DNA of 33,706 nt, from NCBI GenBank assembly GCA_045863235.1, contig BTUM01000086.1, forward strand, positions 1-33,706, read 5' to 3'. Both the position numbers and the translations under genes were made by a program. Below are positions 1 to 33,706 of the stretch, piece after piece. Within the stretch, counting starts at the first letter, position 1. Every line of letters begins with the position of its first letter. This DNA is from Candidatus Xenobia bacterium. Lineage in GTDB: Bacteria; Vulcanimicrobiota; Xenobia; Xenobiales; QWHO01. Below the pieces are notes generated by a model, which was not told the DNA's origin, ran no database searches, and saw nothing but the letters and a program-made list of their open reading frames with translations.

Positions 1-2
1 AC

Positions 3-330
3 CCCCGCCCCGTCGAGCCCGCTCGCGCCAGCGCCGAGACTCGCCACGAAGACCCGGCCACGCGCCCAGTCGAGCCGGCCCGTGCCAGCGCCGAGACTCG
101 CGACGAAGCCCCCGCTCCCCGCCCTGTCGAGCCCGCTCGCGCCGGCGCCGAGACTCGCCACGAAGACCCGGCCCCTCGCCCCGTCGAGCCCCGCGCCGAG
201 ACTCGCCACGAAGACCCGGCCCCGCGCCCGGTCGAGCCCGCGCGCGCCAGCGCCGAGGCCCCCGCTCCCCCCCGCCCTGTCGAACCTGAGGCTCGCGATG
301 AGGCGCCCCACCCCGTCGAGCCCGCCCGAA
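3..330 (+). repeat. Intragenic imperfect tandem repeat, about 57 nt / 19 aa (RPVEPARASAETRHEDPAP)
   Basis: The gtcgagcc...gcgccgagactcgccacgaagacccggcc unit recurs about 4-5 times and then decays to PVEP motifs. Confidence 0.85.
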
Positions 331-2072
331 ATCCGACAGTCCCCGCGGAGAGGCACTCTCGCCCGGTTGAACCTGCTCTGGTCGCTCGCCCCGAAGAGCC
401 CCGACCGGTCGTGCCCGCTGACACCCAGGCCAGCGGGGAGCCCCTGCCCCACCCTCCCGTCGAGCCGGCCAGACAGACCGCACAAGCTCGGAACGAAGCC
501 GTCCCACCCCCAACCGAGGAGTCCGCTCCTGCGCGGGAGCGGATCGAAGCGCGGACGCTCGAGCCGACCGAAGCCGTTCTCCGAAGTCCCCGAAACGAGA
601 GTTCAGAGCCATCGGTCCGTGCCAGTCAGCCTACCGTCCGGACCCAGGAGAGCGACCCGGCGGCGCCCCCTCTCGAGCCGACCCTCTCCAGGGCCCGCGT
701 GGAAGTGCCCGCCCCGCCTCCCGTCGAGCTCGCCCCTCTCGAGACCCGGCCAGTGCAGCGTGCTCCCCTTCCCGAGCTCAGCCCCAACCTGCCCGAGGTT
801 CCCGACCTCGCCCTCAGCGAGCTCGAGCAGTCGGGTCAAATCGGCGATCTGCTCCCCACCAGCCCGCGAGCCGAGCAGGGTCCATCCGATCCGGACGGGC
901 CTCCCGAGTCTCGGCCTGGCAACGCCACCGTGGTGCGGCCGGTATCCGAGTCCTCCACCCATCGCTCACCTGACGCCTACAATCCGGCCGAGCCCCCCGA
1001 AACTCCCAGGCGCCTGTCCCCCCTCACGGCGACTGCCCCTGTGCGACCTCCCGAGGCCCCCCACGCCCAGGCCGAGGGCCAGTCGGGAGATACGGGCACC
1101 GGGGAGCAGGGCTCCCAGGAGCATGGCTCCGAGCGTCGGAGTCCTGCCCCTCTGGAGCGCCCCCAGCCGAAGCTGGCCGCTCCTCCCCCGGCTGCGCCTC
1201 TGGCCCCGAGTGCCTCCGGGCTCCCCGATCGGATGGACCCCAGCGACGAGTTCATCTCCTCCGAGCAAGAGCTGAAGGGCGGCACTGCCCTGCTCGGGAG
1301 CGAGAAGTTGGAGGCCGTGGCCAATCGCCAGGCGGCCAACACGGTGGCCAGTCTGCTCAAGAGGGCCAACCCCGAGCAAGACCTGCAGAACCTGGATGAG
1401 GATAGCGCAGTGCACGGGCTGAGCCTGATCATGAAGGCCATGGGCGGATTCAACATGGGGCGCACCGCTCGCGTGCAGAACCGGGCCATGGCCCTGGCCG
1501 ACGAACTCGGAGTGAAAGACTTCCGCACTCGCAAGCAGATTCGCTATGGCTCGGTGTTGCAGGACCTGGGCCAGACAGGACTTGATCTTTCCCAGGCCGA
1601 CCCCGAGCTCCTCAATGAGATGGCCGAGTTTCTGGCCTCCGAACCCGACCGCAACCTGCGCGGACTGCATCAGGCCGCGCTGTTGCGAGACATCGGCCAG
1701 ATCGCCATTCCCGAGAGCATCCGCAACAAGGCGGCTGAGCTGACCGATGAGGAGAGCGAGCTGATGCGCCTGCATCCCGAGTTGGGGCAGGAGATCGTCT
1801 CGGTGGTGCCTTCGCTGCGTCACCTCGGGCCGGTGATTCGCGGCCATCACGAGCGCTGGGATGGCGAGGGCTACCCGGACGGACTGCGGGGCAACAGGAT
1901 CCCCCTGGCGGCTCGCATCATCGCCGTGGCCGACCTCTTTGAGACCATGAGCGAGCAAGGAATGAGCCTGGCGGAGGCTCGCTCGGCACTGGAAGAGGGG
2001 GCCGGCACGGCTTTCGACCCGAGGATGATCGAGGCGTTCTCGCGGGTCCTGGAGAGCCAGCCGCAGCCCTGA
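3..2072 (+). CDS. 5'-truncated protein: long Pro/Glu/Arg-rich repeat region plus C-terminal degenerate HD-GYP domain
   Basis: The frame of ORF 411..2072 is open back to position 3 (PRPVEPARASAETRHEDPA...). The C-terminus has HHERWDGEGYPDGLRGNRIPLAARIIAVAD, typical of HD-GYP, but the HD dyad reads RD (LLRDIG). Confidence 0.85.
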   Translation, partial: PRPVEPARASAETRHEDPATRPVEPARASAETRDEAPAPRPVEPARAGAETRHEDPAPRPVEPRAETRHEDPAPRPVEPARASAEAPAPPRPVEPEARDEAPHPVEPARNPTVPAERHSRPVEPALVARPEEPRPVVPADTQASGEPLPHPPVEPARQTAQARNEAVPPPTEESAPARERIEARTLEPTEAVLRSPRNESSEPSVRASQPTVRTQESDPAAPPLEPTLSRARVEVPAPPPVELAPLETRPVQRAPLPELSPNLPEVPDLALSELEQSGQIGDLLPTSPRAEQGPSDPDGPPESRPGNATVVRPVSESSTHRSPDAYNPAEPPETPRRLSPLTATAPVRPPEAPHAQAEGQSGDTGTGEQGSQEHGSERRSPAPLERPQPKLAAPPPAAPLAPSASGLPDRMDPSDEFISSEQELKGGTALLGSEKLEAVANRQAANTVASLLKRANPEQDLQNLDEDSAVHGLSLIMKAMGGFNMGRTARVQNRAMALADELGVKDFRTRKQIRYGSVLQDLGQTGLDLSQADPELLNEMAEFLASEPDRNLRGLHQAALLRDIGQIAIPESIRNKAAELTDEESELMRLHPELGQEIVSVVPSLRHLGPVIRGHHERWDGEGYPDGLRGNRIPLAARIIAVADLFETMSEQGMSLAEARSALEEGAGTAFDPRMIEAFSRVLESQPQP

Positions 2073-5734: not shown

Positions 5735-6490
5735 TCAGGGGGTGGGCCCGTGGGTGAAGTGGGGCCCCACCAGGCACGAGAGCTCGCGCTCGATACGCAG
5801 GCTGATGGCCCGCTTCTGGTCGACCAGCTCGGCCTGCACCGGGTCGGCCCCGGGCAGAAGGCGCGACTGGACTTTGTTCTCGCGCCCGGGCACGGTGACG
5901 GCCACCCCCTGGCGCAGCTCCTCGGCGCTCAAACCTGCATCGGGGCAGTCGACCTTCACGATCTGGTCGAAGTCGGCGTTTCCGAAGATGGGGTGCACCA
6001 GGTAGGTATCGCCAGGAGTGCCGTAGAGCGTGTAGCTCAGCTCGTCAGGTCCGCGCGAGGTGCTGTCGAGGTGGCGTGAGTCCACCACCTGGTTGACGCG
6101 CACCTTCACCCCTTCGAGCAGAGGGGTACCGCCCGCTTCGAAGTTGCCCCGGTAGAGGGTGCCCTCGAACTCGGTCAGACGGCCGCCGAGCAGATCCCCG
6201 AGCGAGAACTCGTCGGGCACGAAAGTGTGCAGCTCGTTGCCAAACGAGCGGCCAACCTCGAGCTCGGGATGCTCCAGCCGGACCTCCATGACCGCCTGGT
6301 AGTCATGCGGCTCATGGAACATCGGGATGTGAGAGAAGTGCCCGCTGCCGAACGCGATCATCCCGTGCACGCCCACGTGGCCGCCGGGGGGCGGCGCCTC
6401 GTGCGACAGGGTGACCTGGTCGGGTTGGTCGGCGCGAGGCGAAGGGCCGACGCTGACGGCGGGGCGGGGCATCACAGGCTGGATGATCAT
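5735..6490 (-). CDS. Hypothetical His-motif protein, probably with its own start inside ORF 5735..7297
   Basis: Begins MIIQPVMPRP...DQVTLS with TAGAGT 7 nt upstream. The domain contains HGMIAFG and SHIPMFHEPHDYQ. Confidence 0.6.
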   Translation of the reverse strand: MIIQPVMPRPAVSVGPSPRADQPDQVTLSHEAPPPGGHVGVHGMIAFGSGHFSHIPMFHEPHDYQAVMEVRLEHPELEVGRSFGNELHTFVPDEFSLGDLLGGRLTEFEGTLYRGNFEAGGTPLLEGVKVRVNQVVDSRHLDSTSRGPDELSYTLYGTPGDTYLVHPIFGNADFDQIVKVDCPDAGLSAEELRQGVAVTVPGRENKVQSRLLPGADPVQAELVDQKRAISLRIERELSCLVGPHFTHGPTP

Positions 6491-7225
6491 GCCCGACACT
6501 CTATCCGAGGAAGGCGAGGGTGGTGTTTCCGAGCTGTGAACTGTCGTCGCTGAGATTGCGCGAAAGTACTCCTCGTTGCTCCAGACGGCCCGCACCCCGA
6601 CCGCCGTGCCGCGGGGCACCACGAACTCGCTCAGCCCCACGTGGTTTGCAGAGCCCCAGTCGTAGGTGTATCCCAGGCGGGTCCAGGGATAGGGCGCGGC
6701 CCCCCGGTAACAGCCCTCCCGGCGGCCTTCGAACCAGGCTCGATAGCTGTCGCTGACGCCGGCCGGAAACTCGAGCCCGGCCTCGCGGTCGGTGACCTCG
6801 GGATCGGGGCTGGGCCGCACCATCGTTTCGGGCCACACCCACAGCTCGACCAGCCGATTCTTGCCGGTCCCGGGGGGCAGGCCCAGCAACTGCTCCAGTC
6901 GCCCCACGCCGGGGGCGATTCCCTGTGAGCGGAACCAGCTGGCCACGGCCGGCACGGGGGTCACGAAGCTGTCCTCGACCACCACCATGTCCTGGCCCAG
7001 CGACCGATCGAATTGAGCGCCGGACACCCAGCGCAGCATCAAGACCCGCGAGCGCCCGGGCTGCGCCTCCCAGACCAGCTCGCCCTGGTCGGCCGTGAGG
7101 GCCACCAGCTGCCGGCAAATCTCGCCTGGCTCGGCTCGCTCGGCATCCCGGACCGCCTCGAGGTAAGCGGGGTCGAGGTAGTTCTGGGCCAGGCCCAGGC
7201 TGGAGAGCAGCAGCCAGAAGAGCAT
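6491..7225 (-). CDS. Exported hypothetical domain (YPWTRLGYTYDWG motif), in frame with the downstream unit and with no stop between them
   Basis: Signal-like MLFWLLLSSLGLA, then LEQLLGLPP, ELWV, RPSPDPE, YPWTRLGYTYDWG and GLSEFVV. Confidence 0.6.
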
Positions 7226-7286
7226 CCAGCCGCAAAACCTGAGGAGGGACCTGCCCCCGCCGTCGCGCGGCCGGACGGCCGCGCTC

Positions 7287-8696
7287 CTACAGGGCATCGA
7301 GCAGGTCGCGCAGCTTGTTGACCGTAGGGTGGCTGCGGCCCAACAGGCCTTCCTGCAGGGTCAGCGCTTCGGCCAGGTAGACCCGGGCCTCGCGCGGGTA
7401 GCCCTGGGAGGCCGAGTAGCGGCCCATGGACTCGAAAAAGGCGGCTCGTGCCTGGCGCGTGCCCAATCCCTGGGCAGCCACCAGTTCCTGGACATGTGCC
7501 TCCAGCTGGCGCGGGGCGATTCGCAGCTGCTGGAGCACCTGCACCAGGCCCTGAAGCAGCTCGACCGAGCGTTCCGGGGCCAGTTGCACGGCCCTCTGGT
7601 AATAGGTTTTGGCGTCCAGCAACTGGTTCTCGGCCACGGCCCTCTCGGCCGCGGCAACAATCAGGGCCAGGTTGGGTCCCTCGATCTTCTCGCGAGCCTG
7701 GAGCAACCGCTCGATCTGGCTCAGCCGGGCTCGCTCGAGCTGGGTTTCGAGGTAGGCCGAGGCCCGGGTGACCTGAGCCGGAGTCATGTCGGGCAGGCGC
7801 TCCCAGAGCAGGTTGCGGAGCTCGCGCAGAGCCTCCTTGAGCTGGCCGGTCAGCTCTTGAAAGCGTCGATCCTCCACCACCCCGTCCATCTCCTCAGTGA
7901 GCTTCAAAGCCGAGGTCCAGACCACGGCCCTGAGTCCGCGGGTGCGGGGGCCCTCGAAGGCCAGACCGTCCACCACCAGCATGGTCTTGGAGGACACCTC
8001 GTCGCCGGTCAGACCCAGCGCTGCCACGAAGTCGCCCCCCGGTGCCGGCCGGGCTTCCACCTGAGCCCGGGCCGGGCGGTAGAAGGGCATTCCCTCCACC
8101 GGTCCGAGCAAGAGAACGGCCAGGCAACCCTTGAGGTCGAAGCGCCCGCGCAGGGGGGTCCCCCCCACCGAAACCGGGATGGGGCAAAGCTGGCAAAAAT
8201 TCTTGAGGTAACGGTCCTCGCGGTGGACGGGGCGGCTGAGCACCCGCTTGACGATGGCGGGGCGGCAGTCGACCTCCAGGACCACGTCGGTGCAGGGCTG
8301 GCTGAGCACGGCCCGCAGCTCGCCCCGGATGCGCAGCAGCTTGCCCGAGCTCTGCAGCCTGATCTCGCGCGGCTGCAACCCCGACGCCAGAGCCACGGCC
8401 CGGGCCAGGGCGCCCTCGGGTCCGGGGGCCTCGAGGCACTCCGACAGCCGCTCCATGGTGCTCGGCCCCACCTCGAAGCCGGGCAGCTCAAAGCGGGTCA
8501 CCCAGCCCTGGCGCTCCATCCGCACCTCACGGGCTCCTCCCCGCAGGGCGGCTTGAACCAGGCAGAGGGCGTACAGCTCAGGATCGGTCTTGAGCGGTTC
8601 CGGCTCGGGTCGCTTCACCCGGCGATGCTTCTCGATGCCGGGCCTCCGCTTCCTGGTCGGGGAGGATTGCTCTGGATGCGGCGAACTTGCAGCCAT
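7287..8696 (-). CDS. Hypothetical protein with degenerate GHKL/Hsp90-like N-terminus and C-terminal TPRs
   Basis: DPELYALCLVQAALRGGA resembles the GHKL motif I region. TPR-like AKTYYQRAVQLAP and EARVYLAEALTLQEGLLGRSHP. Start uncertain. Confidence 0.55.
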   Translation of the reverse strand: MAASSPHPEQSSPTRKRRPGIEKHRRVKRPEPEPLKTDPELYALCLVQAALRGGAREVRMERQGWVTRFELPGFEVGPSTMERLSECLEAPGPEGALARAVALASGLQPREIRLQSSGKLLRIRGELRAVLSQPCTDVVLEVDCRPAIVKRVLSRPVHREDRYLKNFCQLCPIPVSVGGTPLRGRFDLKGCLAVLLLGPVEGMPFYRPARAQVEARPAPGGDFVAALGLTGDEVSSKTMLVVDGLAFEGPRTRGLRAVVWTSALKLTEEMDGVVEDRRFQELTGQLKEALRELRNLLWERLPDMTPAQVTRASAYLETQLERARLSQIERLLQAREKIEGPNLALIVAAAERAVAENQLLDAKTYYQRAVQLAPERSVELLQGLVQVLQQLRIAPRQLEAHVQELVAAQGLGTRQARAAFFESMGRYSASQGYPREARVYLAEALTLQEGLLGRSHPTVNKLRDLLDAL

Positions 8697-21065: not shown

Positions 21066-21175
21066 GAGGCTGGCAAGTTCGTAGTGCCTCGGAGTCGCTC
21101 CTTTTGCTCGCCCCGGCCAACCGTCTGCAAATTGTTCACACCCTGGCCGCGGCGCGCTGCTATGCTGACGTCGCT

Positions 21176-22810
21176 ATGATGACCGCCCCGCTTGCCGCCG
21201 CCCCCCTCCGCCTGCGCGAGGACCCCGTCCCTCCAGCCCCTCCTCCGCCTCCCCCCGAGCCCGACCCGTTCGTGGTGGTGGACATGCTGGCCCAGGACCC
21301 GATGGTCTCGGTGCTCGAGCCGGTCGCGCTCCCGAGGGTCGAGATCGGGACGCAGCTCGCCGGCCCGCGCATGCAGGTGCAGGACTCGGTGCCGGTGGCC
21401 ATGGCCGATGAGCAGGGCAACTACCACTACCAGCTCGGCTCGGATCACTTCGACCAGGTCAACACCACCGCCGTGGTGGCCCGCACGCTCTTGAGCTACG
21501 AGCGCTATATGGGCCACCAGACCCCCTGGTCGTTTGACGGGCCGCTCACCATCAATCCCCACGCCGGCACGGGCAAGACCGCCTACTACTCGCGCTGGGA
21601 CGACTCCATCAACTTCTGCCAGTGGGACTCGCCTTCGCTGGGCAAGACCGTCAAGACGGCCGAGTCCCCTGACGTGATCGCCCACGAGACCGGCCACGCC
21701 ATTCTGGACGGCCTGCGCCCGAACATCGGCTGGGGCACCGAGCCGGCCTCCTTCCACGAGGGCTTCGGCGATAGCTCGGCCATCCTGCACGCGCTGCAGT
21801 ACGACTCCAACCTGGACAAGATCCTGGCCGAGAACGAGGGCGACTTCTCCCGCCCCAGCCTGCTCAGCCGCATGGCCGAGGAGTTCGGCACCGCCTTCAA
21901 CAAGGAAGACCAGAACCCCAACAACGACAACAATCCTTACTACCGCACCGCCCTCAACGAGTTCCGCTACGTCGACCCGCGCCAGCTTCCCCGCGACAGC
22001 TACCCGCCCACCTACCCCGAGGAGGTGCTCACCAGCGAGCCCCACTCCTTCTCGCGCGTCTGGTCGGGCACGTTCTACTCGCTGGTGGGGGCCCTCTACG
22101 GCCAGTGCCAGCAGGAGGCAGCCACGCCCAGGGAGGCTCTGGTGGCGGCTCGCGAGGCCCTGGGTCCGATCTTCGCCCGCTCGTTTGACCACATGCCCAC
22201 CAGCAACCTCAAGTTCCGCGACGTGGCGCTGGGCATGCTGCGCGAAGCGGCCACTTTCGAGCAGGGCAAATTCTTCGACACCGTGGCCGGAGTGCTGATC
22301 GACCGCAACCTGTTGACCCGCGAGGAGGCCCAGCAGGCGCGAGAGCCGGCCCCGGCCGTCAGGTTGAGCGGGCCGGTGCGTACCCCGTTCGAGGCCGAGC
22401 AGGCTCTGAGCGCGCTCCACAAGGAGCTGGGCCTGCCCGAAGGGATGGCCTGGAAGGCCGATCCGGTCCAGGCCGGCGCCGATGGCCGCCAGGTGCTGCT
22501 CTTCCGCGCTCCCGACCGGGTGGAGGTCAGCCTGGGCCATCACGGCGACGCCGAGATGGAGCTCAACTCGGGCCTGACCCTGGTCTTCGACCGCGAGGGC
22601 AAGCTGGTCTCTCAGACCTACACCCCGGTCGAGGAGAGCGATCGCGAGGACGCGCGCAGCTTCGCGCAGGACCTGCAGGCTCAGGGGCGCATCGCCGGCT
22701 CGGACCAGCTCTTCCAGAGCGTGGATCCGGGTGGACGGCCCTTCAAAGCGCGGCTGGTGCCCCAGGTCACCGGCCTGCCCCGCCTGGAGCAGGTGCCGGT
22801 CTGGGATTGA
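21176..22810 (+). CDS. Zinc metalloprotease, M4/M36-like
   Basis: DVIAHETGHAILD (HExxH), third ligand in FHEGFGD, and EPHSFSRVW. Pro-rich N-terminus with no Sec signal. Confidence 0.85.
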   Translation: MMTAPLAAAPLRLREDPVPPAPPPPPPEPDPFVVVDMLAQDPMVSVLEPVALPRVEIGTQLAGPRMQVQDSVPVAMADEQGNYHYQLGSDHFDQVNTTAVVARTLLSYERYMGHQTPWSFDGPLTINPHAGTGKTAYYSRWDDSINFCQWDSPSLGKTVKTAESPDVIAHETGHAILDGLRPNIGWGTEPASFHEGFGDSSAILHALQYDSNLDKILAENEGDFSRPSLLSRMAEEFGTAFNKEDQNPNNDNNPYYRTALNEFRYVDPRQLPRDSYPPTYPEEVLTSEPHSFSRVWSGTFYSLVGALYGQCQQEAATPREALVAAREALGPIFARSFDHMPTSNLKFRDVALGMLREAATFEQGKFFDTVAGVLIDRNLLTREEAQQAREPAPAVRLSGPVRTPFEAEQALSALHKELGLPEGMAWKADPVQAGADGRQVLLFRAPDRVEVSLGHHGDAEMELNSGLTLVFDREGKLVSQTYTPVEESDREDARSFAQDLQAQGRIAGSDQLFQSVDPGGRPFKARLVPQVTGLPRLEQVPVWD

Positions 22811-23449: not shown

Positions 23450-25435
23450 TCAGGGCGAACCCGCTCCGCGACGCTTCCTGATCACGACCCCGCCCACGCG
23501 CAAGGTGGTTTCACCCTCCACCACCGCCGAGCTGCTGGTCGCCTCGGGAGCGAGCTTCTCGGGCACCTGCAGGCTCCTGGCACCCGGCGGAGTGAAGATC
23601 ACGAATCCGCCGGCGTCGGTGCTGGCGGCGATGGAGCCGCCATCTGAGGTCAGGCCCAGCTGATTCACCGGGCTGCCCACGTCAAAGACCAGGGCGCTGC
23701 CGCTGCTCTTCTCCGGATCGTGCCAGACCAGCTTGGCGTCCTGGGTGGCCGAGGCCACCATGGGAGTGCCGCTCATCATCACCGGAATGGCCAGGCGGTG
23801 GGGCCCCACGTTGTCGGGCGAGAAGATCCGGGTGGACTTGCCCTGGCTCTCCACGGAGATCTCCTCCTGCGTCTGGCGGAGCTTGAGCTCGGGACGACCC
23901 GGGAACGGGGTCTCGGCCAGTTCGGGGCGCTCGAGCACCTGGGCAGTCAGAAGGCGCCGCATGGCTTCCTCCGAGCCTCCCACCGCCTGGAACACGGCCG
24001 CGGGCAGCGAGCTGACGGTGGGCAGGGCGAAGTTGATGCAGTCGTCAGGAGTGACGAAGACCGAGCCGGGAGACGGGGGAGCCGCCATCAGGCCTCCGCT
24101 CACCTTCAGGCTGCGAGCGGCGGCGTCCAGGGCGGCGTCCAGCCGGCAGGGGGTGAATTCGGTGGACTGGTGGGCGATGTAGGAGAGGGGATAGCGGGTG
24201 CTGCCCATGGCCGTGTCCGGGCCGATGTCCTGGAGGAACTCGGCGGCGTTGGCATAGCTCTTGTCGCCCAGCAGCTCCACGCCTTCGCGGTGGACCACGA
24301 AGATGCGTCCATCGGCCAGCATTCCGGGCACGAAGCCCTGGTTGCGGTAGATGGGCTCGGGACGCTGGGCCTTCACTTTGCCCAGCAGGTTTCGGTGGGC
24401 CGGAGCGCCCAGGTCGAGACGATACAGACGCCCTCCGCCCCCGTGGCCGTCGCCATCGGCCGCCATCAGCACCGTCTTGCCGTCCTTGGACAGATGCAGG
24501 CCGCGGGGATAGGTGTCGTCCGGGAACTTGAACGAGGCCATCTGCTTGCCGTGCTGGTCATAAGCGGTGATGTGGGGATGGGCGGCAGCTCCTTCATCGA
24601 GCAGGAACCCCCCGCCCGGCAGGGGCACGATGCGGTCGGCCTCGGAGCTGACCTTGAAGCGCTCCACCTCGCCGGTGGCGCTGTCGTAGCGAACCAGGTT
24701 GGCGTACTCTTGCTTGTATTTGGTGGGCTTGCTCTCGAGGAACAGCAGCCGACCCTCGTGGACCAGCGGGCTGTAGAGCTTGAGCGAATCCGACTGGCAC
24801 TTGAGGTTGCCCTGAGCGTCTCGCACTTCCAGGCCCTCGCCGTCGTCATAGACGGCGATGTGGCCCTGGCCAACGTCCAGCACCTGGTCGGTGGCCAGCT
24901 CGGTGCGCGACTGCCAGCGCGGGGCGAGATCGGGGCCGAGCACCATCACGTTGCCGTCCTTGAAGGTGCCCAGCGGGATGGCCAGGGCCAGGTCGCCCGT
25001 GGAGAGCAGGGTCATATTGCCCAGGCAGTTGAGGCTCTCGGGCACGACCGAGCCGACTTCCTGGCCTTTGGGGTCGAGCACCACGATGCCGTGGGAGGTG
25101 CGCACGTAGCTGTTCTGGCTCCGGGGGTCGAATTGCACCTGCTGCACGTAGTCGGGGGAGTGGTAGTGGAAGAGCGGTGTCCCGGTGGTGTCCACCACGC
25201 TCAGCGTCTTGCGGTCGGGCGCGATCAGGTTGTGGCGCACCTGGCCGCTCTCGCTGCGGACCTCGGTGCTGAGCCGGCGGTAGCCGTCCAGGGGAATCTT
25301 GCGGACGGGCTGGTAGGTCTCGTTGTCCTGGGGGATGTAGACAGTGGCGCTTCCAAAGGGCAGCTCCTCGGGCGTGGGCTGACTGGCAGCGGCCCGGGGG
25401 GCGGTCATGACAGTTGCAAGCGGCCGGATGAGCAT
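23450..25435 (-). CDS. Hypothetical beta-propeller-like protein with C-terminal VGGVVIRKRR tag
   Basis: Repeated beta-strand/xDG units (VLDPKG, AYDQHG, LSKDGK, LTSDGG). TACACT 6 nt upstream of the ATG. Confidence 0.7.
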   Translation of the reverse strand: MLIRPLATVMTAPRAAASQPTPEELPFGSATVYIPQDNETYQPVRKIPLDGYRRLSTEVRSESGQVRHNLIAPDRKTLSVVDTTGTPLFHYHSPDYVQQVQFDPRSQNSYVRTSHGIVVLDPKGQEVGSVVPESLNCLGNMTLLSTGDLALAIPLGTFKDGNVMVLGPDLAPRWQSRTELATDQVLDVGQGHIAVYDDGEGLEVRDAQGNLKCQSDSLKLYSPLVHEGRLLFLESKPTKYKQEYANLVRYDSATGEVERFKVSSEADRIVPLPGGGFLLDEGAAAHPHITAYDQHGKQMASFKFPDDTYPRGLHLSKDGKTVLMAADGDGHGGGGRLYRLDLGAPAHRNLLGKVKAQRPEPIYRNQGFVPGMLADGRIFVVHREGVELLGDKSYANAAEFLQDIGPDTAMGSTRYPLSYIAHQSTEFTPCRLDAALDAAARSLKVSGGLMAAPPSPGSVFVTPDDCINFALPTVSSLPAAVFQAVGGSEEAMRRLLTAQVLERPELAETPFPGRPELKLRQTQEEISVESQGKSTRIFSPDNVGPHRLAIPVMMSGTPMVASATQDAKLVWHDPEKSSGSALVFDVGSPVNQLGLTSDGGSIAASTDAGGFVIFTPPGARSLQVPEKLAPEATSSSAVVEGETTLRVGGVVIRKRRGAGSP

Positions 25436-26520
25436 GGCTTCAGTGTAGGCCCTGGCCCTGAAAGCTGCCTGAACGTGTCCACGGGGTCCAGGGTCTGGAT
25501 GGCCCCGGCCAGCTGCTCGGGAGCAAGGAGCTCAAAGCCGTTCCGCACCAGCCACTGCGGGTTGTAGACGGTGTCGAGGTAGCGCTCCCCCCGGTCGGGG
25601 TTGATCATCAGCACTTCGCTCCCCGGCGCCAGACTGGCCGCGTGGCGCAGCCCGGCGGCCACGATGGCGCCGGTGGAGGAGCCCAGTAACAGCCCCTCGC
25701 GTCGGGCCAGCGCGTGGCAGACCGAGTAGGCCAGCCGCTCGGGCACGATGTAGCCGGCGTCGATCAGCGAGTAGTCCAGGCAGGGAGGGCGGAAGGAGAG
25801 CCCGATCCCGGTCATCTTGTAAGGGGCCGGCGGACCTCCCAGGATCTGCGATCCAGCCACGTCGACGGCCACGACCTCGAGCCGGGGGAAGAGGGGCCGC
25901 AGCCAGCTGGCAAGGCCCATCAGCTGGCCCCCGGTGCTCACCCCCACCACCAGGCAGTCCAGCCCGTCCGGGAAGGCGGCCTGGATCTCGCGGGCGGTGA
26001 ACTCGGAATGTGCCCGCGGGTTCTCCGGGTTGAGGTGCTGGCAGGGATACCAGGCCCCCGGTATGGTTTCCGAAAGCTCGCGGGCCCGCGCCATGCGGGC
26101 TGGCTGTAGCGAGCCGGAGGCATCGGCGGCCGAGGGGGGAACCTCCTCCAGCTCGGCGCCGTAAGCCTCCAGGGTCCGCCGGAAGGCGGGGGTCGTTTTC
26201 TGGTCCACCACGATGATGACCCGGTACGACCGGGCCGCCCCGATCATGGCCAGAGCCACCCCGAAGTTGCCCGAGCTCGACTCCACGATGGTGCCGCCGG
26301 GCGCGAGCTGGCCTGACTCCTCGGCCTGGTCCACCAGGAAGACGGCGTTCTTCTCCTTGATGGAGCCCCCGGGATTGCACCCCTCCAGCTTGAGATACAT
26401 CAGGTGGGACTTGCAGGCCGCGGTCAGGCGGTGCAGCCGAACGATGGGAACCGAGCCCACCGCCTGAGTGAAATCGCGGCTCAGTCGAGCCGAGCGAGCG
26501 CAGGCGCAGCCGCTGGCCAT
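25405..26520 (-). CDS. PLP-dependent cysteine synthase family protein (CysK/SbnA-like)
   Basis: LKLEGCNPGGSIK, ESSSGNFG, GVSTGG, EGLLLGSSTG and PDRGERYLDTVY. Confidence 0.9.
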   Translation of the reverse strand: MASGCACARSARLSRDFTQAVGSVPIVRLHRLTAACKSHLMYLKLEGCNPGGSIKEKNAVFLVDQAEESGQLAPGGTIVESSSGNFGVALAMIGAARSYRVIIVVDQKTTPAFRRTLEAYGAELEEVPPSAADASGSLQPARMARARELSETIPGAWYPCQHLNPENPRAHSEFTAREIQAAFPDGLDCLVVGVSTGGQLMGLASWLRPLFPRLEVVAVDVAGSQILGGPPAPYKMTGIGLSFRPPCLDYSLIDAGYIVPERLAYSVCHALARREGLLLGSSTGAIVAAGLRHAASLAPGSEVLMINPDRGERYLDTVYNPQWLVRNGFELLAPEQLAGAIQTLDPVDTFRQLSGPGPTLKPCSSGRLQLS

Positions 26521-27500
26521 CAGCTCAGCTCGAAGACGAAGGGGAAGGTGACCACCTGGCCCTCGTGCTTGAACTGGCCCCAGATCTTGTAGACCCCGTC
26601 GGGGGGCATCTGGCCGTGCAGCATGAACGGGAAGTCGGGGCCGGCTCCCTCGAGCAGCGGCTGCGCGTGGTGGCCGTGATGGCCCGAGTGCAGGTGGTTG
26701 AAGGAGCGGTCGGCGGCCTCAGCGCCGTCCGCTCCGATCATGATGGCGTGGCCCGGCATTCCCAGCCAGTTCTCGGCCTCCTGCACCGGCTGGTAGCCAT
26801 CCCCGACCGCCTTCTCGAGGTGGAAGGTCAGGTGGATCATGCCGTGTCCGCGCATGTCGTCGAGCTCGAAGGATACGCGGTAGGGAGCTCCTTGCTCTCC
26901 CGGTTGGCCATCGGCGCCGAAGTAGCGCGTGACCTGGCCGCTGCCGGTCAGGTCGGGCTGGAGCTTGACCGGCGCCGCCTGGCCGCTGGCCTCGAGGTCG
27001 AGCGCCAGGCCCTGCACCTTCTGCCCGCGCGGTTTGACCTCGGCGAAGACCAGGTGCGTGCCAGCCTTGGCGATGGCCCGCTCGGCGTCGCGATTGTCCG
27101 GATCGGCCGTGGGCTGGTTGAGATCGAGCGAGAACTCTCCCCGGGTCGTCAGGTTCGGGTGCAGATGGGCGAAGGTCTCCAGGTCGGCGCTGACCACGAT
27201 CATGTGCATCGGCTTCTCGTGCTCGAGGTCGAACTCGCGCACCGGGTTGCCGTGGGGGTCGAGAATGGCCATCTCGAGCCGGGTCGGCTGCCCGGGCAGG
27301 ACCGGGCCACCCTCCTGCCCGTTGAGAAGCATGCGGGCCTGCCAGCTCCTGGCAGGGGGATGATGGGGCGGATGCGCGGGCGGACTGGCCTGGGCGGGGG
27401 TGAAGCGGTCCTCGGGGCTGGAGTCGGCCAACTGGGGCCGAGTCTGAGCTGCGGTGGTGGGCAGGCGGTGAGTCGCGGGAGCGACGGCGGTCAAGATCAT
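26520..27500 (-). CDS. His/Met-rich putative heavy-metal-binding protein
   Basis: HEKPMHMIVVSADLETFAHLHP, WLGMPGHAIMI, HLHSGHHGHH and GVYKIWGQFKHEGQV. GGAGG SD; TGATG coupling to the downstream gene. Confidence 0.75.
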   Translation of the reverse strand: MILTAVAPATHRLPTTAAQTRPQLADSSPEDRFTPAQASPPAHPPHHPPARSWQARMLLNGQEGGPVLPGQPTRLEMAILDPHGNPVREFDLEHEKPMHMIVVSADLETFAHLHPNLTTRGEFSLDLNQPTADPDNRDAERAIAKAGTHLVFAEVKPRGQKVQGLALDLEASGQAAPVKLQPDLTGSGQVTRYFGADGQPGEQGAPYRVSFELDDMRGHGMIHLTFHLEKAVGDGYQPVQEAENWLGMPGHAIMIGADGAEAADRSFNHLHSGHHGHHAQPLLEGAGPDFPFMLHGQMPPDGVYKIWGQFKHEGQVVTFPFVFELS

Positions 27501-27640
27501 GGGTTCCTCCGAGTGATTGGTGGCTCGAAGGTAGGGACGGGTCGTCTGGGGAGCGTCAGGTCTGCGTCATCGGGACGGTCCGTCTGGCAGGCTTTGTTGC
27601 CATCCAGGTTTTCGTAAGGGTATCGGGTTAAGCTCGTGGC

Positions 27641-30439
27641 ATGCAGGTCCAACCTGTCCTGACAAGTCATGCCTTCCTCAGGCCGGCGGCCGCCCAGGCG
27701 TCCCCGGTCGATCGCTTCGAGCCTGGCCAGGTGACGGCGGAGCCGATGCGGTTCGGTCCGGCCTCGCCCCGGGTTGTCCCTGAGGCTGAGTGGCTGCTGG
27801 TCAGGCGCCAGGCCGAGCGGGCCCTGGCTCTGGCAGCCCTGGCTCGACCCGACACTCCCGCCATGCCCTGGCTGCGCTCTGCGGACGGCTCGGTGCGTCA
27901 CCTGGCTCGGAGAAAGTGGGCCCGCCAGACACCCGAGCAAAGCCAGCTGGAGAGATACTGCGCCGAGCTCGGCCCGGTCGAGGGTCCGGCCGCCCACGTG
28001 CGGCTCAAGTCCATGTTCGTGGGGAAGTACTACACCTTCGACAAGGCCGAGCTCGAGCAGGCCATGCATCGCCTCGATGCTGGCGTGCGAGGCCAGGGAA
28101 GAGCCAGCCAGAGCGCCCTGCAAAGCCTGTTGCTGGCATCCCGCAACCTGACCTTGCGCCAGCGAGACCCGGAGGTGGACCCGGCTCTTCGCCTGGAGGC
28201 CGGACAGATCGCTTCCCGGGCCGGGGGGGTGCTGGAGCAGTGGTGGCGCGACGGCCTGTGCGAGGTAGCCGGGAAGACCCCCGGTAGCTTGCCGCTGGGC
28301 TCGCTGGCCGCCAATGCGCCGGTGGCGGTGTGGGGGAGCCGGCTGGTGGTGGGGCGTCCCGCCACCCAGAGTCCGCCCTGGGCGAGCGAGCAGGCGGCAG
28401 CGATCGTCTCCGGGAAGCGTCCCGACCCCATGGCCGGCCTTGCGCCCGAGCCTGCCTCGCAACTGGCTGGAGCCCTGGTGGAGGAGGTCCTGGCACGGGT
28501 CACCGAGCCCGAGGCGATCAAATACCTGGACGGTCTGCTCGAGCAGTGCCCTCGGAATGCCGCTCTGGCCGCGGCCTTCCGCCCGCACCTGGAAGGGATG
28601 CGTGAGCTGGCCCGCCACGCTCGCTCGCGCAACGTGCTGGGCCCCGATTCCTGCTCCAGCGTGGCCGAGCCGGCCATGAGCTACTACGGTCACCTCATGA
28701 AGGCGTTCCCCGAGGTGATGGATGAGCGGCTCGTGCGCCAGCTGGAGCCGCTCTTCTTCGACACCCACGGACAGGCGGCCGATTCCACCAGTTGCCGCCT
28801 GCAAGAGATCTGGAAGGTCCATCCCGAGCTGGTCGACTGCAGTGTAAAAATGGTGCTGGGCGGACTGGAGCAGAGCCCGGCGGTGCCTCAGTCCGCATTC
28901 TGGCGCTTTTTCACCGCGGCCGGGAAGGCCGGCTGGCAGCCCGACAAGCTCGAGCGCGACTTCATGGTGCACTGGCTGTCAGTCCTGCCCGACCCGGGCC
29001 AGGAAAGTGGGCGTCTTGCGCTGTGGGACAGCGGCTGCTTCGAGCCGGCGATCGAGACCCTGGCCAAATTCGTGGAGCGCGATCCGGCTTTCCTGGAGGG
29101 CCTTTCTCTGACCGACCGCCAGGGCCAGCTGCGCCCGGTGCGGGAGGCTCTGTTGAGCCATCTGCTCGAGACCCCTGGCGCCGACGAGCGATACGAGAAC
29201 TGGGCCCACGCTCTCTTCAAAGTGCTGGCTCCCGGCGTCGACGAGCTATTCGAGAAGCGCTTGCTGCAGCCCCTGGAGGTCGAGCTGGCGGGCCGCACCA
29301 GCCTGCTCGACCTGCCCCCCGAGCAGCGCAACCGCCTCTCGGTGCTGGCCTGCATCCCCCTGAGCGAGGCCACCAGTCAGCGACTGGGCCAGTTGCTGGA
29401 GAGCGGTCTCCCCTTCGAGCAGGGACACCTGAATCGGCTGATGGAGCGCTACCGGAGCCCGCGGATGGAAGCCCACCTGACCGAGTTCCAGGCCCCCGAG
29501 GCCAGCAGCCAGGAGCGTCTGGAAGCGGCCCGCGCGGCCCAGCACCTCTATCTGCACCACAACTACCAGACCTATCAGTTCAACGAGCGCTTTGGTGCCG
29601 CCCTCAAGAGCCTGGACCCGGCCGCTGCGGATACCCTGGAGGCCCACCTGGCTCAACGGCTCGAGTCGCTCGTGCTGAGTGGCCAGGGGCTCCACCAGGT
29701 GGACCAGAGCGCGCTCTACGACATCCAGCTGGCGGCCACGATGGTGCCCGAGCGGCCGGGGCTGCTCGAGCCGCTGCGCCAGCTTCTGCCGCCCGATGGG
29801 GTCAAGCTGGAGGGGGCTCCCCACCGGGTCGCCGCCCGCATCCGTTTTCGCATTCGCGACTTCAACGATCACCTCCTCAAGCAGAGTGGCCATCCTGAAG
29901 AGCAGCGTTTCGCCTGGCTGGAGGAGAACGTTCGTCACGCCGCCGCCTGGCGCGACCGGCTGCCCGAGGAAAGCCTCCAGCTCTGGGCCCAGGGGGCGAC
30001 CGGATGGGTGGCTGATGCCTGTCAGACGATCGAGCGCCTCCCGGAAGCCCTGCGGGTGGTGCGAGTGCTGATGCGGGAGGATGATCCGACCGGCCTGCTC
30101 TACCTGGTGCAGGGACGACTCAGGGGGGCGGACCTGCTGGCCCAGAGCGAACCCGACCCTGAGAACTTCCCCACGCGCACCGTCGAAGCCCTGGAAGCCT
30201 ACCGGCAAGCCCGCAATGAGGGGTTGGGCCGGGAAGCGGCCCTGGATCGTGTGCTGGGCAAGCTTTCCCCGGTCGAGGCCCCCGCCAGCGCCGGCGTGGA
30301 GGAGACCAGAACGCACGTGGGGGTGGGCCCCGTGCGTCTCCGTCGCCGGGGCTCGAATGATTCGGATCAGTGCCACGCCCTGTTCGTTCGCCTATGCTGG
30401 CCTCGTGGCCAGACCAACGCTCCAGCTAGCTGTCGATAG
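27641..30439 (+). CDS. Large helical hypothetical protein (932 aa) with N-terminal leader and near-C-terminal VGPVRLRRR tag
   Basis: Long ORF with GC3-rich codons and Leu/Glu/Ala-rich helical character. TAAGCT 6 nt upstream of the ATG. Confidence 0.75.
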   Translation: MQVQPVLTSHAFLRPAAAQASPVDRFEPGQVTAEPMRFGPASPRVVPEAEWLLVRRQAERALALAALARPDTPAMPWLRSADGSVRHLARRKWARQTPEQSQLERYCAELGPVEGPAAHVRLKSMFVGKYYTFDKAELEQAMHRLDAGVRGQGRASQSALQSLLLASRNLTLRQRDPEVDPALRLEAGQIASRAGGVLEQWWRDGLCEVAGKTPGSLPLGSLAANAPVAVWGSRLVVGRPATQSPPWASEQAAAIVSGKRPDPMAGLAPEPASQLAGALVEEVLARVTEPEAIKYLDGLLEQCPRNAALAAAFRPHLEGMRELARHARSRNVLGPDSCSSVAEPAMSYYGHLMKAFPEVMDERLVRQLEPLFFDTHGQAADSTSCRLQEIWKVHPELVDCSVKMVLGGLEQSPAVPQSAFWRFFTAAGKAGWQPDKLERDFMVHWLSVLPDPGQESGRLALWDSGCFEPAIETLAKFVERDPAFLEGLSLTDRQGQLRPVREALLSHLLETPGADERYENWAHALFKVLAPGVDELFEKRLLQPLEVELAGRTSLLDLPPEQRNRLSVLACIPLSEATSQRLGQLLESGLPFEQGHLNRLMERYRSPRMEAHLTEFQAPEASSQERLEAARAAQHLYLHHNYQTYQFNERFGAALKSLDPAAADTLEAHLAQRLESLVLSGQGLHQVDQSALYDIQLAATMVPERPGLLEPLRQLLPPDGVKLEGAPHRVAARIRFRIRDFNDHLLKQSGHPEEQRFAWLEENVRHAAAWRDRLPEESLQLWAQGATGWVADACQTIERLPEALRVVRVLMREDDPTGLLYLVQGRLRGADLLAQSEPDPENFPTRTVEALEAYRQARNEGLGREAALDRVLGKLSPVEAPASAGVEETRTHVGVGPVRLRRRGSNDSDQCHALFVRLCWPRGQTNAPASCR

Positions 30440-33035: not shown

Positions 33036-33704
33036 TTAGCGGCGCCCGCCGCCCCGTGAGCGCGCTCCGCCGGACGGATTGACCTGCCCGCCGCGCGAGC
33101 CCTGACGGGTCACTGAGCTACCCTCGCGCTTGAGGGTGCTCTGTCGGGTGGTGCTGGCCTTCGGTCCGGTTGAGGTGCCCTGGTGCTGGATGGAGCTGCC
33201 GTCTTTCTGCCAGCTGTCGCTGGAGCTGCGCTCCTGGCCCCTGGGGCCGGTGGTCGTGCTGTCGCGATTGACGCTGTTGCCGTCCTTGCCCCAGGTGGCG
33301 TTCTGGTTCACTTCCTGGCCGTTTGGTCCAGTTTTGGTCGACTCCTTGTTGACCTGGTTGCCGTCTTTGGTCCAGGTGGCGTTCTGGTTGACCTCCTGGC
33401 CGTTGGGGCCGGTTTTGGTGGACTCCTTGGTCACCTGGTCGCCTTCCTTGGTCCAGGTGGTCTCTGTCTCGACGGCCTTCCCGTTGGGCCCGGTGGTGGT
33501 GCCCTGGTGCTCGACCGTGTTGCCGTCGCGCTGCCAGGTATCCTCGGCCTTGATGGTCTGGCCCTGCGGACCGGTGGTGGTGCCCTGGTGCTCGACCGTG
33601 TTGCCGTCGCGCTGCCAGGTATCCTCGGCCTTGATGGTCTGGCCCTGCGGACCGGTGGTGGTGCCCTGGTGCTCGACCGTGTTGCCGTCGCGCTGCCAGG
33701 TATC
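33036..33704 (-). CDS. 5'-truncated 27-aa repeat protein (TWxxDGNxVxxxxTxTGPxG)
   Basis: Frame open from the window edge to the TAA at 33036-38. The 81-nt period is near-identical at 33491-33706, and about 7-8 repeats are visible. Confidence 0.85.
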   Translation of the reverse strand, partial: DTWQRDGNTVEHQGTTTGPQGQTIKAEDTWQRDGNTVEHQGTTTGPQGQTIKAEDTWQRDGNTVEHQGTTTGPNGKAVETETTWTKEGDQVTKESTKTGPNGQEVNQNATWTKDGNQVNKESTKTGPNGQEVNQNATWGKDGNSVNRDSTTTGPRGQERSSSDSWQKDGSSIQHQGTSTGPKASTTRQSTLKREGSSVTRQGSRGGQVNPSGGARSRGGGRR

Positions 33705-33706
33705 CT

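Follow-up and report, generated by a model that had tools for sequence, protein, structure and literature searches.

Two large proteins encoded in one stretch of bacterial DNA carry the same short motif near their C-termini, which raises the question of what this motif does and how it relates to the route by which such proteins might leave the cell. The stretch analysed here (33,706 nucleotides, referred to as the window) corresponds to contig C86 in a Ca. Eremiobacterota genome (G000) of 8.36 Mb that is 97.6% complete. A homolog with 67% identity bears the name Ca. Eremiobacterota and the DNA of the window is also present in sludge and bioreactor metagenomes. A preliminary description of the window proposed that the motif is a C-terminal tag for secretion, cargo loading or docking that consists of a beta-hairpin followed by a basic tail. 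A regular expression and a profile located the motif in both proteins where it had been described and placed both copies in a genome-wide set.

The first carrier is a beta-rich protein of 661 aa (23450-25435, - strand) that has no signal peptide and no match in Pfam, NCBIfam or PADLOC, and it is related to other tagged beta-rich proteins such as L121 in G083. Its tag comprises aa 637-656 (23468-23527, - strand; 37 bits with the genome-wide profile) and is separated from the stop by 5 residues. Among its homologs the tag is kept down to 39% identity and the linker diverges. The second carrier is a protein of 932 aa (27641-30439, + strand), also lacking a signal peptide and a match in the family searches, that belongs to a 14-member cluster of tagged paralogs. 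Its tag (aa 885-904, 30293-30352, + strand; 34 bits with the same profile) has a G-P variant of the G-G turn and is found in 9/9 loci of its homologs in G001-G004. The C-terminal position proposed for both copies applies to the 661-aa protein; in the 932-aa protein 28 residues follow the tag (30353-30439, + strand). Since the orthologs in G001 (L295) and G004 (L297) end right at the motif, this tail is regarded as a non-conserved extension. Other orthologs have a different tail behind the tag, and a one-base insertion is present within the 30353-30439 region in run X2. A BLASTP comparison of the two carriers yielded nothing significant and its best alignment (E 0.61) was the tag itself, which bears out the proposal that the proteins are otherwise unrelated. 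Contigs from RNA runs overlap parts of both carrier genes, an overlap that cannot show transcription.

Both carriers begin with a putative type III export signal, an assignment based on their sequence and on class-level statistics. The N-terminus of the 661-aa protein (25346-25435, - strand) is rich in Pro, Ala and Ser and non-hydrophobic, and that of the 932-aa protein (27641-27730, + strand) is type-III-like and contains a D-x-F-x-P-G motif (27710-27727, + strand). Additional genes of the window have related features. Between the carriers lies a gene for a His-rich, untagged protein with a strong type-III-like N-terminus (26520-27500, - strand; score 12.4). An untagged HExxH metallopeptidase-like protein (21104-22810, + strand) has a Pro-rich type-III-like start and no Pfam match, and a paralog of it is encoded at C69:14897-16663 of the same genome. 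A 520-aa frame (5735-7297, - strand) appears to join a signal-peptide protein to a second protein from about aa 270; the second protein has a type-III-like N-terminus and the frame possibly represents two genes without an intervening stop. The region 1-2072 (+ strand) encodes an HD-GYP protein whose N-terminal repeat is long and rich in Pro and Glu, and a tandem repeat of about 28 codons (33118-33706) continues past the right edge of the window.

The tag extends far beyond these two proteins. A simple regular expression gave 181 matches in the 73,495 six-frame ORFs of the genome, 91 of which lie within 10 aa of the stop. An iterated 23-column profile with a cut-off of 18 bits gave a bimodal score distribution and 197 ORFs at or above the cut-off, 190 of which have the tag near the C-terminus. 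After removal of the tag these 197 ORFs form 93 BLAST clusters, which agrees with the proposal of a C-terminal module that is portable, attached by a linker and shared by unrelated proteins. The consensus behind the linker is [VI]-x-E-x-x-x-x-V-x-[VI]-G-G-V-x-[VL]-[RK]-[RK]-R. Of the 6,957 called genes 194 are carriers, dispersed over 87 of the 166 contigs. In 149 of them no more than 15 residues separate the G-G turn from the end, in 38 the distance is 16-40 residues and in 7 the turn is internal. Among called genes of at least 100 aa the tag was scored at the C-terminus of 188/6,497 with a profile trained on the same tails that it scores, compared to none in each of three shuffles, at no N-terminus and in no mid-protein window, an enrichment in keeping with the preliminary proposal. 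An independent model built from 13 tails of two other genomes only (G013 and G025) gave 20 matches in G000, 18 of which are carriers. An origin of the tag as a DNA repeat was rejected because codon use within it resembles that of the genome as a whole. No recurring neighbour, small-protein family or chaperone gene was found around the 194 carriers. In four carriers with an internal tag (C3:76119-78410, C3:123379-126006, C32:68044-70248 and C135:61-2361) the tag is followed by a domain of 170-220 aa with short beta-type repeats that is unique to these proteins in G000.

The carriers share the character of their N-termini. A hydrophobic, Sec-type N-terminal stretch is present in 1/194 carriers compared to 1,436/5,400 other proteins (27%; Fisher p 4e-24), and among propeller paralogs in 0/32 tagged compared to 8/28 untagged proteins. 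Many carriers start with M-[QNI]-[IV] followed by a Pro/Ser/Ala-rich stretch with P-x-D-x-[FV]-x-L-S. An N-terminal model trained on the carriers and cross-validated on held-out clusters is modest, with an AUC of 0.79, and with start sites being uncertain it is to be read statistically and not protein by protein; at a score of 8 it selects 25% of carriers versus 2.7% of other proteins. Among 5,988 untagged proteins 158 score at least 8, and in none of these does the tag score reach 4. They include two proteins of the window, an alpha/beta hydrolase and the HExxH protein, as well as an exo/endonuclease-phosphatase, and further members are presumably enzymes, judging by motifs that we take to be characteristic of them. 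The tagged classes comprise small hairpin/coiled-coil carriers, beta-propellers, MAM/CUB proteins and helical-repeat proteins. Of the 61 carriers shorter than 350 aa, 45 have a hydrophobic segment in the middle, in most cases a hairpin flanked by coiled coils, a layout that we take to resemble that of translocators or Inc-type proteins; one such match, to SseC in P0048, is weak (E 6e-4). Pfam was searched with 94 of the 197 carriers, 77 of which were blank, and the 17 matches were to 14 PQQ-type propellers, one PD40, one HD domain and one MAM/CUB protein; the carriers are called mostly non-enzymatic on the strength of these 77 blanks and 17 matches, one of which is an HD domain.

The beta-hairpin of the preliminary description gave way to a different predicted fold. 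AlphaFold2 run on an 80-row tag alignment yielded three strands (17-20, 23-26 and 29-32) with a core pLDDT of about 85. In the model of a full carrier, P0084 (28 rows), residues 1-73 are disordered, residues 83-403 form a closed propeller of 8 blades whose best structural match is an 8-blade design, and a low-confidence linker leads to a separate three-strand meander at 422-437. The tag is thus predicted to be a linker-attached, three-stranded beta-meander that forms a separate module outside the body fold. The conserved Val, Ile and Leu residues alternate, a pattern that would place them on one face. An origin from a propeller blade was considered and rejected: the hhalign probability was below 3% and the tag is outside the closed propeller. 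No significant sequence match to the tag was found in the PDB, a structure comparison with 48,161 chains gave no Z of 2 or more and the Atlas no usable match. No Pfam family match covered the tag in the 94 carriers and 34 outside proteins, no NCBIfam match was on the tag in 44 carriers, and a full-text literature search, the coverage of which leaves out most subscription journals, returned no paper on this motif. The tag is undescribed by any of the family models and literature searched.

A total of 401 genomes of the phylum were searched, including one unpublished genome (G391) on which no claim depends. Models of the basic tag found multi-copy C-terminal tags in 14 of them (G000-G004, G030, G083, G086, G100, G063, G108, G036, G047 and G059). 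A second version was found at the ends of homologous propellers in two apparently negative genomes of one genus, G013 and G025. Its consensus, L-x-x-x-x-x-x-L-x-[VI]-G-D-x-x-[LVI]-P-x-x, is acidic, and in 30/30 loci (13 of them training rows), which are homologs of carrier families of G000, it lies 0-2 residues from the stop. Alignment with hhalign (96%) shows the two versions, which we call dialects, to be homologous. The 14 genomes of the basic models are found again with the acidic model, which adds G013 and G025 for a total of 16 tag-positive genomes. Over the C-terminal 22 residues the net charge averages +2.2 in the basic dialect versus -4.4 in G013/G025 and the protein bodies are equally charged; a proteome-wide acid shift was accordingly rejected, the propeller bodies having -3.0 versus -3.5 charges per 100 aa. 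Since the acidic dialect is found on members of these same families, the basic tail does not have the signalling role proposed for it, and by comparison of the sequences the pattern conserved between the dialects is hydrophobic and not one of charge.

The propellers with type-III-like starts in G013/G025 bear the tag, and the signal-peptide and lipoprotein propellers of G034, G042 and G044 end with their last blade. Two loci of G034 (L211 and L212, contig C43) are tandem arrays of a dozen or more genes for lipoprotein-type PQQ propellers. The 71 matches in G089 were rejected since they derive from a DNA repeat that reads like the tag, and this genome was counted as tag-negative; this repeat (L080, L115, L120 and L123) has roughly 70 copies, many of them at the ends of contigs. 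Chance was taken to explain the singletons of f15/f20 genomes and a pair of weak matches in G231, and ten inspected singleton or weak loci were mostly non-terminal or off-frame and differed between models.

Which machine could export such proteins? The genome encodes FlhA, FlhB, FliPQR, FliI, FliF and a C-ring. The locus on contig C27 contains flgB, flgC, a fliE-like gene, fliF, fliG, fliH, fliI, fliJ, a lytic transglycosylase gene and fliK, as well as a short hook/rod-like gene, fliM, two fliN, fliP, two fliQ, fliR, flhB, flhA and three copies of an 81-aa pilin-like gene; flgF/G is on contig C74. The two fliQ genes are in tandem (C27:64799-65385), and several relatives have a single one. Flagellin was not found in G000, and because flagellated relatives have a second full FlhA the C27-type locus is considered separate from the motility flagellum. 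With the 81-aa pilin-like gene used as a marker, 53 genomes are positive and all 16 tag-positive genomes are among them, a co-occurrence that is phylogenetically nested and involves kin that are not independent. Some genomes that have an FlhA of this kind are not picked up by the marker, and further dialects of the tag may have escaped the models. A multi-copy C-terminal tag was found in 0/348 marker-negative genomes, and 37 of the 53 marker-positive genomes are without the tag. The preliminary description considered linkage to flagellar or type III, type IV or contractile injection loci; of these, the flagellum-derived locus or its marker is in 16/16 tag genomes, and machinery of the other two kinds was not found in G000. 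A VirD4-type coupling protein is missing (PF02534, 0 matches in this 97.6% complete genome), TssC of a T6SS and a contractile sheath were not found, and 22 HlyD-like matches were all below the cut-off. Three secretins are encoded.

The machine loci offer no candidate for a reader of the tag. Among the genes listed they hold no tag-specific gene, they are alike in tag-positive and tag-negative genomes and no machine gene bears a copy of the tag. In the acidic genus there is no clear charge swap in the machine proteins; a few single sites differ, and these also do so in tag-negative genomes. The presence of flagellin across genomes does not track the tag. G000 has five orphan FlhA-C-domain proteins (C80, C3, C1, C106 and C107), some of which are fused to FliG-N, and relatives have up to 15 FHIPEP matches per genome.

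The tag also occurs outside this context. When 1.84 billion representatives were searched, 77 matches were obtained, several from training genomes; four were dropped as repeat artefacts, and in the remainder the motif is within 14 residues of the end in 68 and internal in 5. Other kinds of carriers include a DUF7379 hydrolase, a SnoaL protein, a subtilase and a protein named Caldilineaceae. P0082 is a fusion of a SIR2-like domain and a PtuA-like ATPase in which the linker contains the tag, and no link to secretion was seen. In the subtilase family 18/54 members end in the motif (17/53 without the seed), as called at 10 bits or more with an Eremiobacterota-only profile for which the maximum over 2,700 shuffles was 7.1. 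A hydrophobic N-terminus is present in 1/54 of these subtilases, a type-III-like start is absent and their genes are outside any secretion locus. In 28/31 loci the subtilase gene is behind a conserved gene of 190-200 aa, which has no tag among the loci listed. The named family members are from Acidobacteriota and Alphaproteobacteria, and in named bins only a weak, alphaproteobacterial tag variant is seen. The two-gene cassettes (L304-L310 and L384-L407, e.g. L385:347-2334) occur sporadically in these two groups. Their first gene product has a weak winged-helix-like end and no Pfam or PADLOC match, and its combination with a signal-less subtilase has a defence- or toxin-antitoxin-like layout.

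Our tentative reading, held at a little less than an even chance, is that the tag is a portable docking handle on a subclass of cargo likely exported by the flagellum-derived type III machine. The carriers lack Sec signals, are enriched in disordered N-termini of type III character and bear the tag past a flexible linker. The N-terminus would route the carrier through the flagellin-less export apparatus. The tag, predicted to fold alone with four to five Val, Ile or Leu residues on one face, may bind a partner protein by this face, and the flanking charges, basic in most lineages and acidic in one genus, could tune the choice of partner. After export the tagged proteins would be brought together in assemblies or on a scaffold and kept separate from untagged cargo, for instance the hydrolases. 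A docking handle is favored over an export signal because the N-terminal signal is also on 158 untagged proteins, because the machine is unchanged where the tag is absent, because 37 of the 53 marker-positive genomes lack it, because copies can be internal and because the tag is also on signal-less cytoplasmic-type enzymes. Of the roles proposed in the preliminary description the secretion context is thus retained and docking fits best, and the tag itself is probably not the export signal. More broadly, there is close to an even chance that a two-ended address code is at work, placed on the cargo of an undescribed flagellum-derived injection machine. An N-terminal type III signal would serve export, and a 20-residue C-terminal meander in lineage-specific charge dialects would sort about 190 membrane-inserting and binding proteins or assemble them on a dedicated partner; defence-like cytoplasmic systems in other bacteria would have taken over the same micro-domain.

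A role in sorting before export fits most of the same data. The tag would then be a second, C-terminal signal that is read by a chaperone, an orphan FlhA-C adaptor or a sorting platform and sets the order or route of secretion; this is the closest competitor of docking, though taken alone we judge it to be rather unlikely. The non-Sec carriers and the co-occurrence with the marker fit it equally well, flagellar chaperones bind C-terminal regions of their cargo, and both the five orphan FlhA-C-domain proteins and the constant position of the acidic dialect, 0-2 residues from the stop, would agree with it. The titles cited in PMC3511370 include work on FlgN-FlhA and on 'N- and C-terminal signals' of SopD, and that paper treats N-terminal type III signals. 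However, the number of FlhA-C paralogs does not track the tag (tag-negative genomes have 2-15 copies), and a sorting signal accords poorly with machine loci devoid of a tag-specific gene, with internal copies and with tags on signal-less subtilases and on a SIR2-ATPase fusion without a link to secretion. It is improbable that the tag is a foldon-like module through which carriers such as pore-forming hairpin proteins, multivalent propellers and clustered proteases oligomerise. An amphipathic meander directly after coiled coils in the small carriers, its use in unrelated systems that are commonly switched by clustering and the lack of any need for a co-distributed partner gene, none of which was found, would suit self-association, but the like-charged tails of either dialect would repel each other, 190 carriers with one interchangeable module would cross-oligomerise and there would be fewer reasons for a dialect that is uniform across a genus.

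Two further explanations are given still less weight. A handle for an unfoldase or AAA+ protease adaptor that removes cargo left unsecreted and cytoplasmic enzymes that might do harm would be C-terminal and linker-attached on non-Sec cargo and cytoplasmic proteases, as the tag is, and a ubiquitous reader would account for the absence of a linked gene. This is very unlikely given the extensions of 0-28 residues, the internal copies, the folded meander, the opposite charge dialects and the lack of the tag on untagged cargo such as the hydrolases; the terminal degrons known to us are unlike a folded, variably extended and oppositely charged tag. The least probable explanation, to which we assign hardly any weight, is a C-terminal export signal for a type I, IV, VI or contractile injection machine or a basic peptide for import into a target cell. 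A protein without a Sec signal and with a C-terminal motif is the pattern of type I and type IV secretion, and the 22 sub-threshold HlyD-like matches could be set beside it. The opposing evidence includes the lack of a coupling protein, TssC, sheath or above-threshold HlyD among the matches, GGxGxD in 3/194 carriers, an acidic dialect that excludes a positive-charge signal and the type-III-like N-termini of the carriers.

We know of no conserved sequence in type III signals, and a sharp, searchable tag on about 3% of genes makes it possible to list the candidate cargo of a so far unstudied secretion machine. The host lineage is uncultured and putatively predatory; passages of PMC9259500 describe diverse secretion systems and predatory traits of a related family, Ca. 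Eudoremicrobiaceae, which suggests predation there, and neither these passages nor a term search of 8 supplementary files of that paper gave any mention of such a tag. With the basic and acidic dialects, nature offers a swap experiment by which the reader could be sought. If the tag is a docking module, its 20 residues would make it one of the smallest portable ones and a potentially useful engineering tag.

Among known systems, the substrates of VirB/D4 type IV secretion resemble the carriers in having a C-terminal tag, basic in most lineages here, and no Sec signal, but no coupling protein was found, and the tag has a conserved hydrophobic beta pattern and is acidic in one genus. Type I substrates likewise have an uncleaved C-terminal signal and no Sec signal; unlike in them, no RTX arrays were seen in the carriers, which do have type-III-like N-termini, and no HlyD match is above the cut-off. 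The T9SS CTD (TIGR04183/PF18962), LPXTG, PEP-CTERM and GlyGly-CTERM are also portable C-terminal labels placed after a linker on unrelated proteins. These need Sec export, whereas the carriers are Sec-less; the T9SS CTD has 70-80 aa, the other three have a TM helix and none matched in the carriers searched (LPxTG in 0/194), so the preliminary separation from LPXTG, PEP-CTERM and the T9SS CTD is upheld. Type III and flagellar substrates share with the carriers the lack of a Sec signal, a disordered Pro/Ser-rich N-terminus and a flagellar-type apparatus in the genome. They differ in that no chaperone genes are beside the carriers, in that the machine is flagellum-derived with a pilin-like subunit, and in the conserved folded C-terminal module on about 190 putative substrates, which has no counterpart in the papers searched. 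The effector-associated domains or EADs (Kaur et al. 2020, PMC7159879) are helical or alpha+beta and recur on a core component or a neighbouring gene, whereas the tag has about 20 residues, is predicted to be all-beta and has no copy on the machine or the neighbour of the subtilase. As described there, EAD1-10 are like the tag in being small non-enzymatic modules at the ends of many unrelated proteins, with lineage-specific versions, that are also found on subtilase, hydrolase and SIR2-ATPase proteins.
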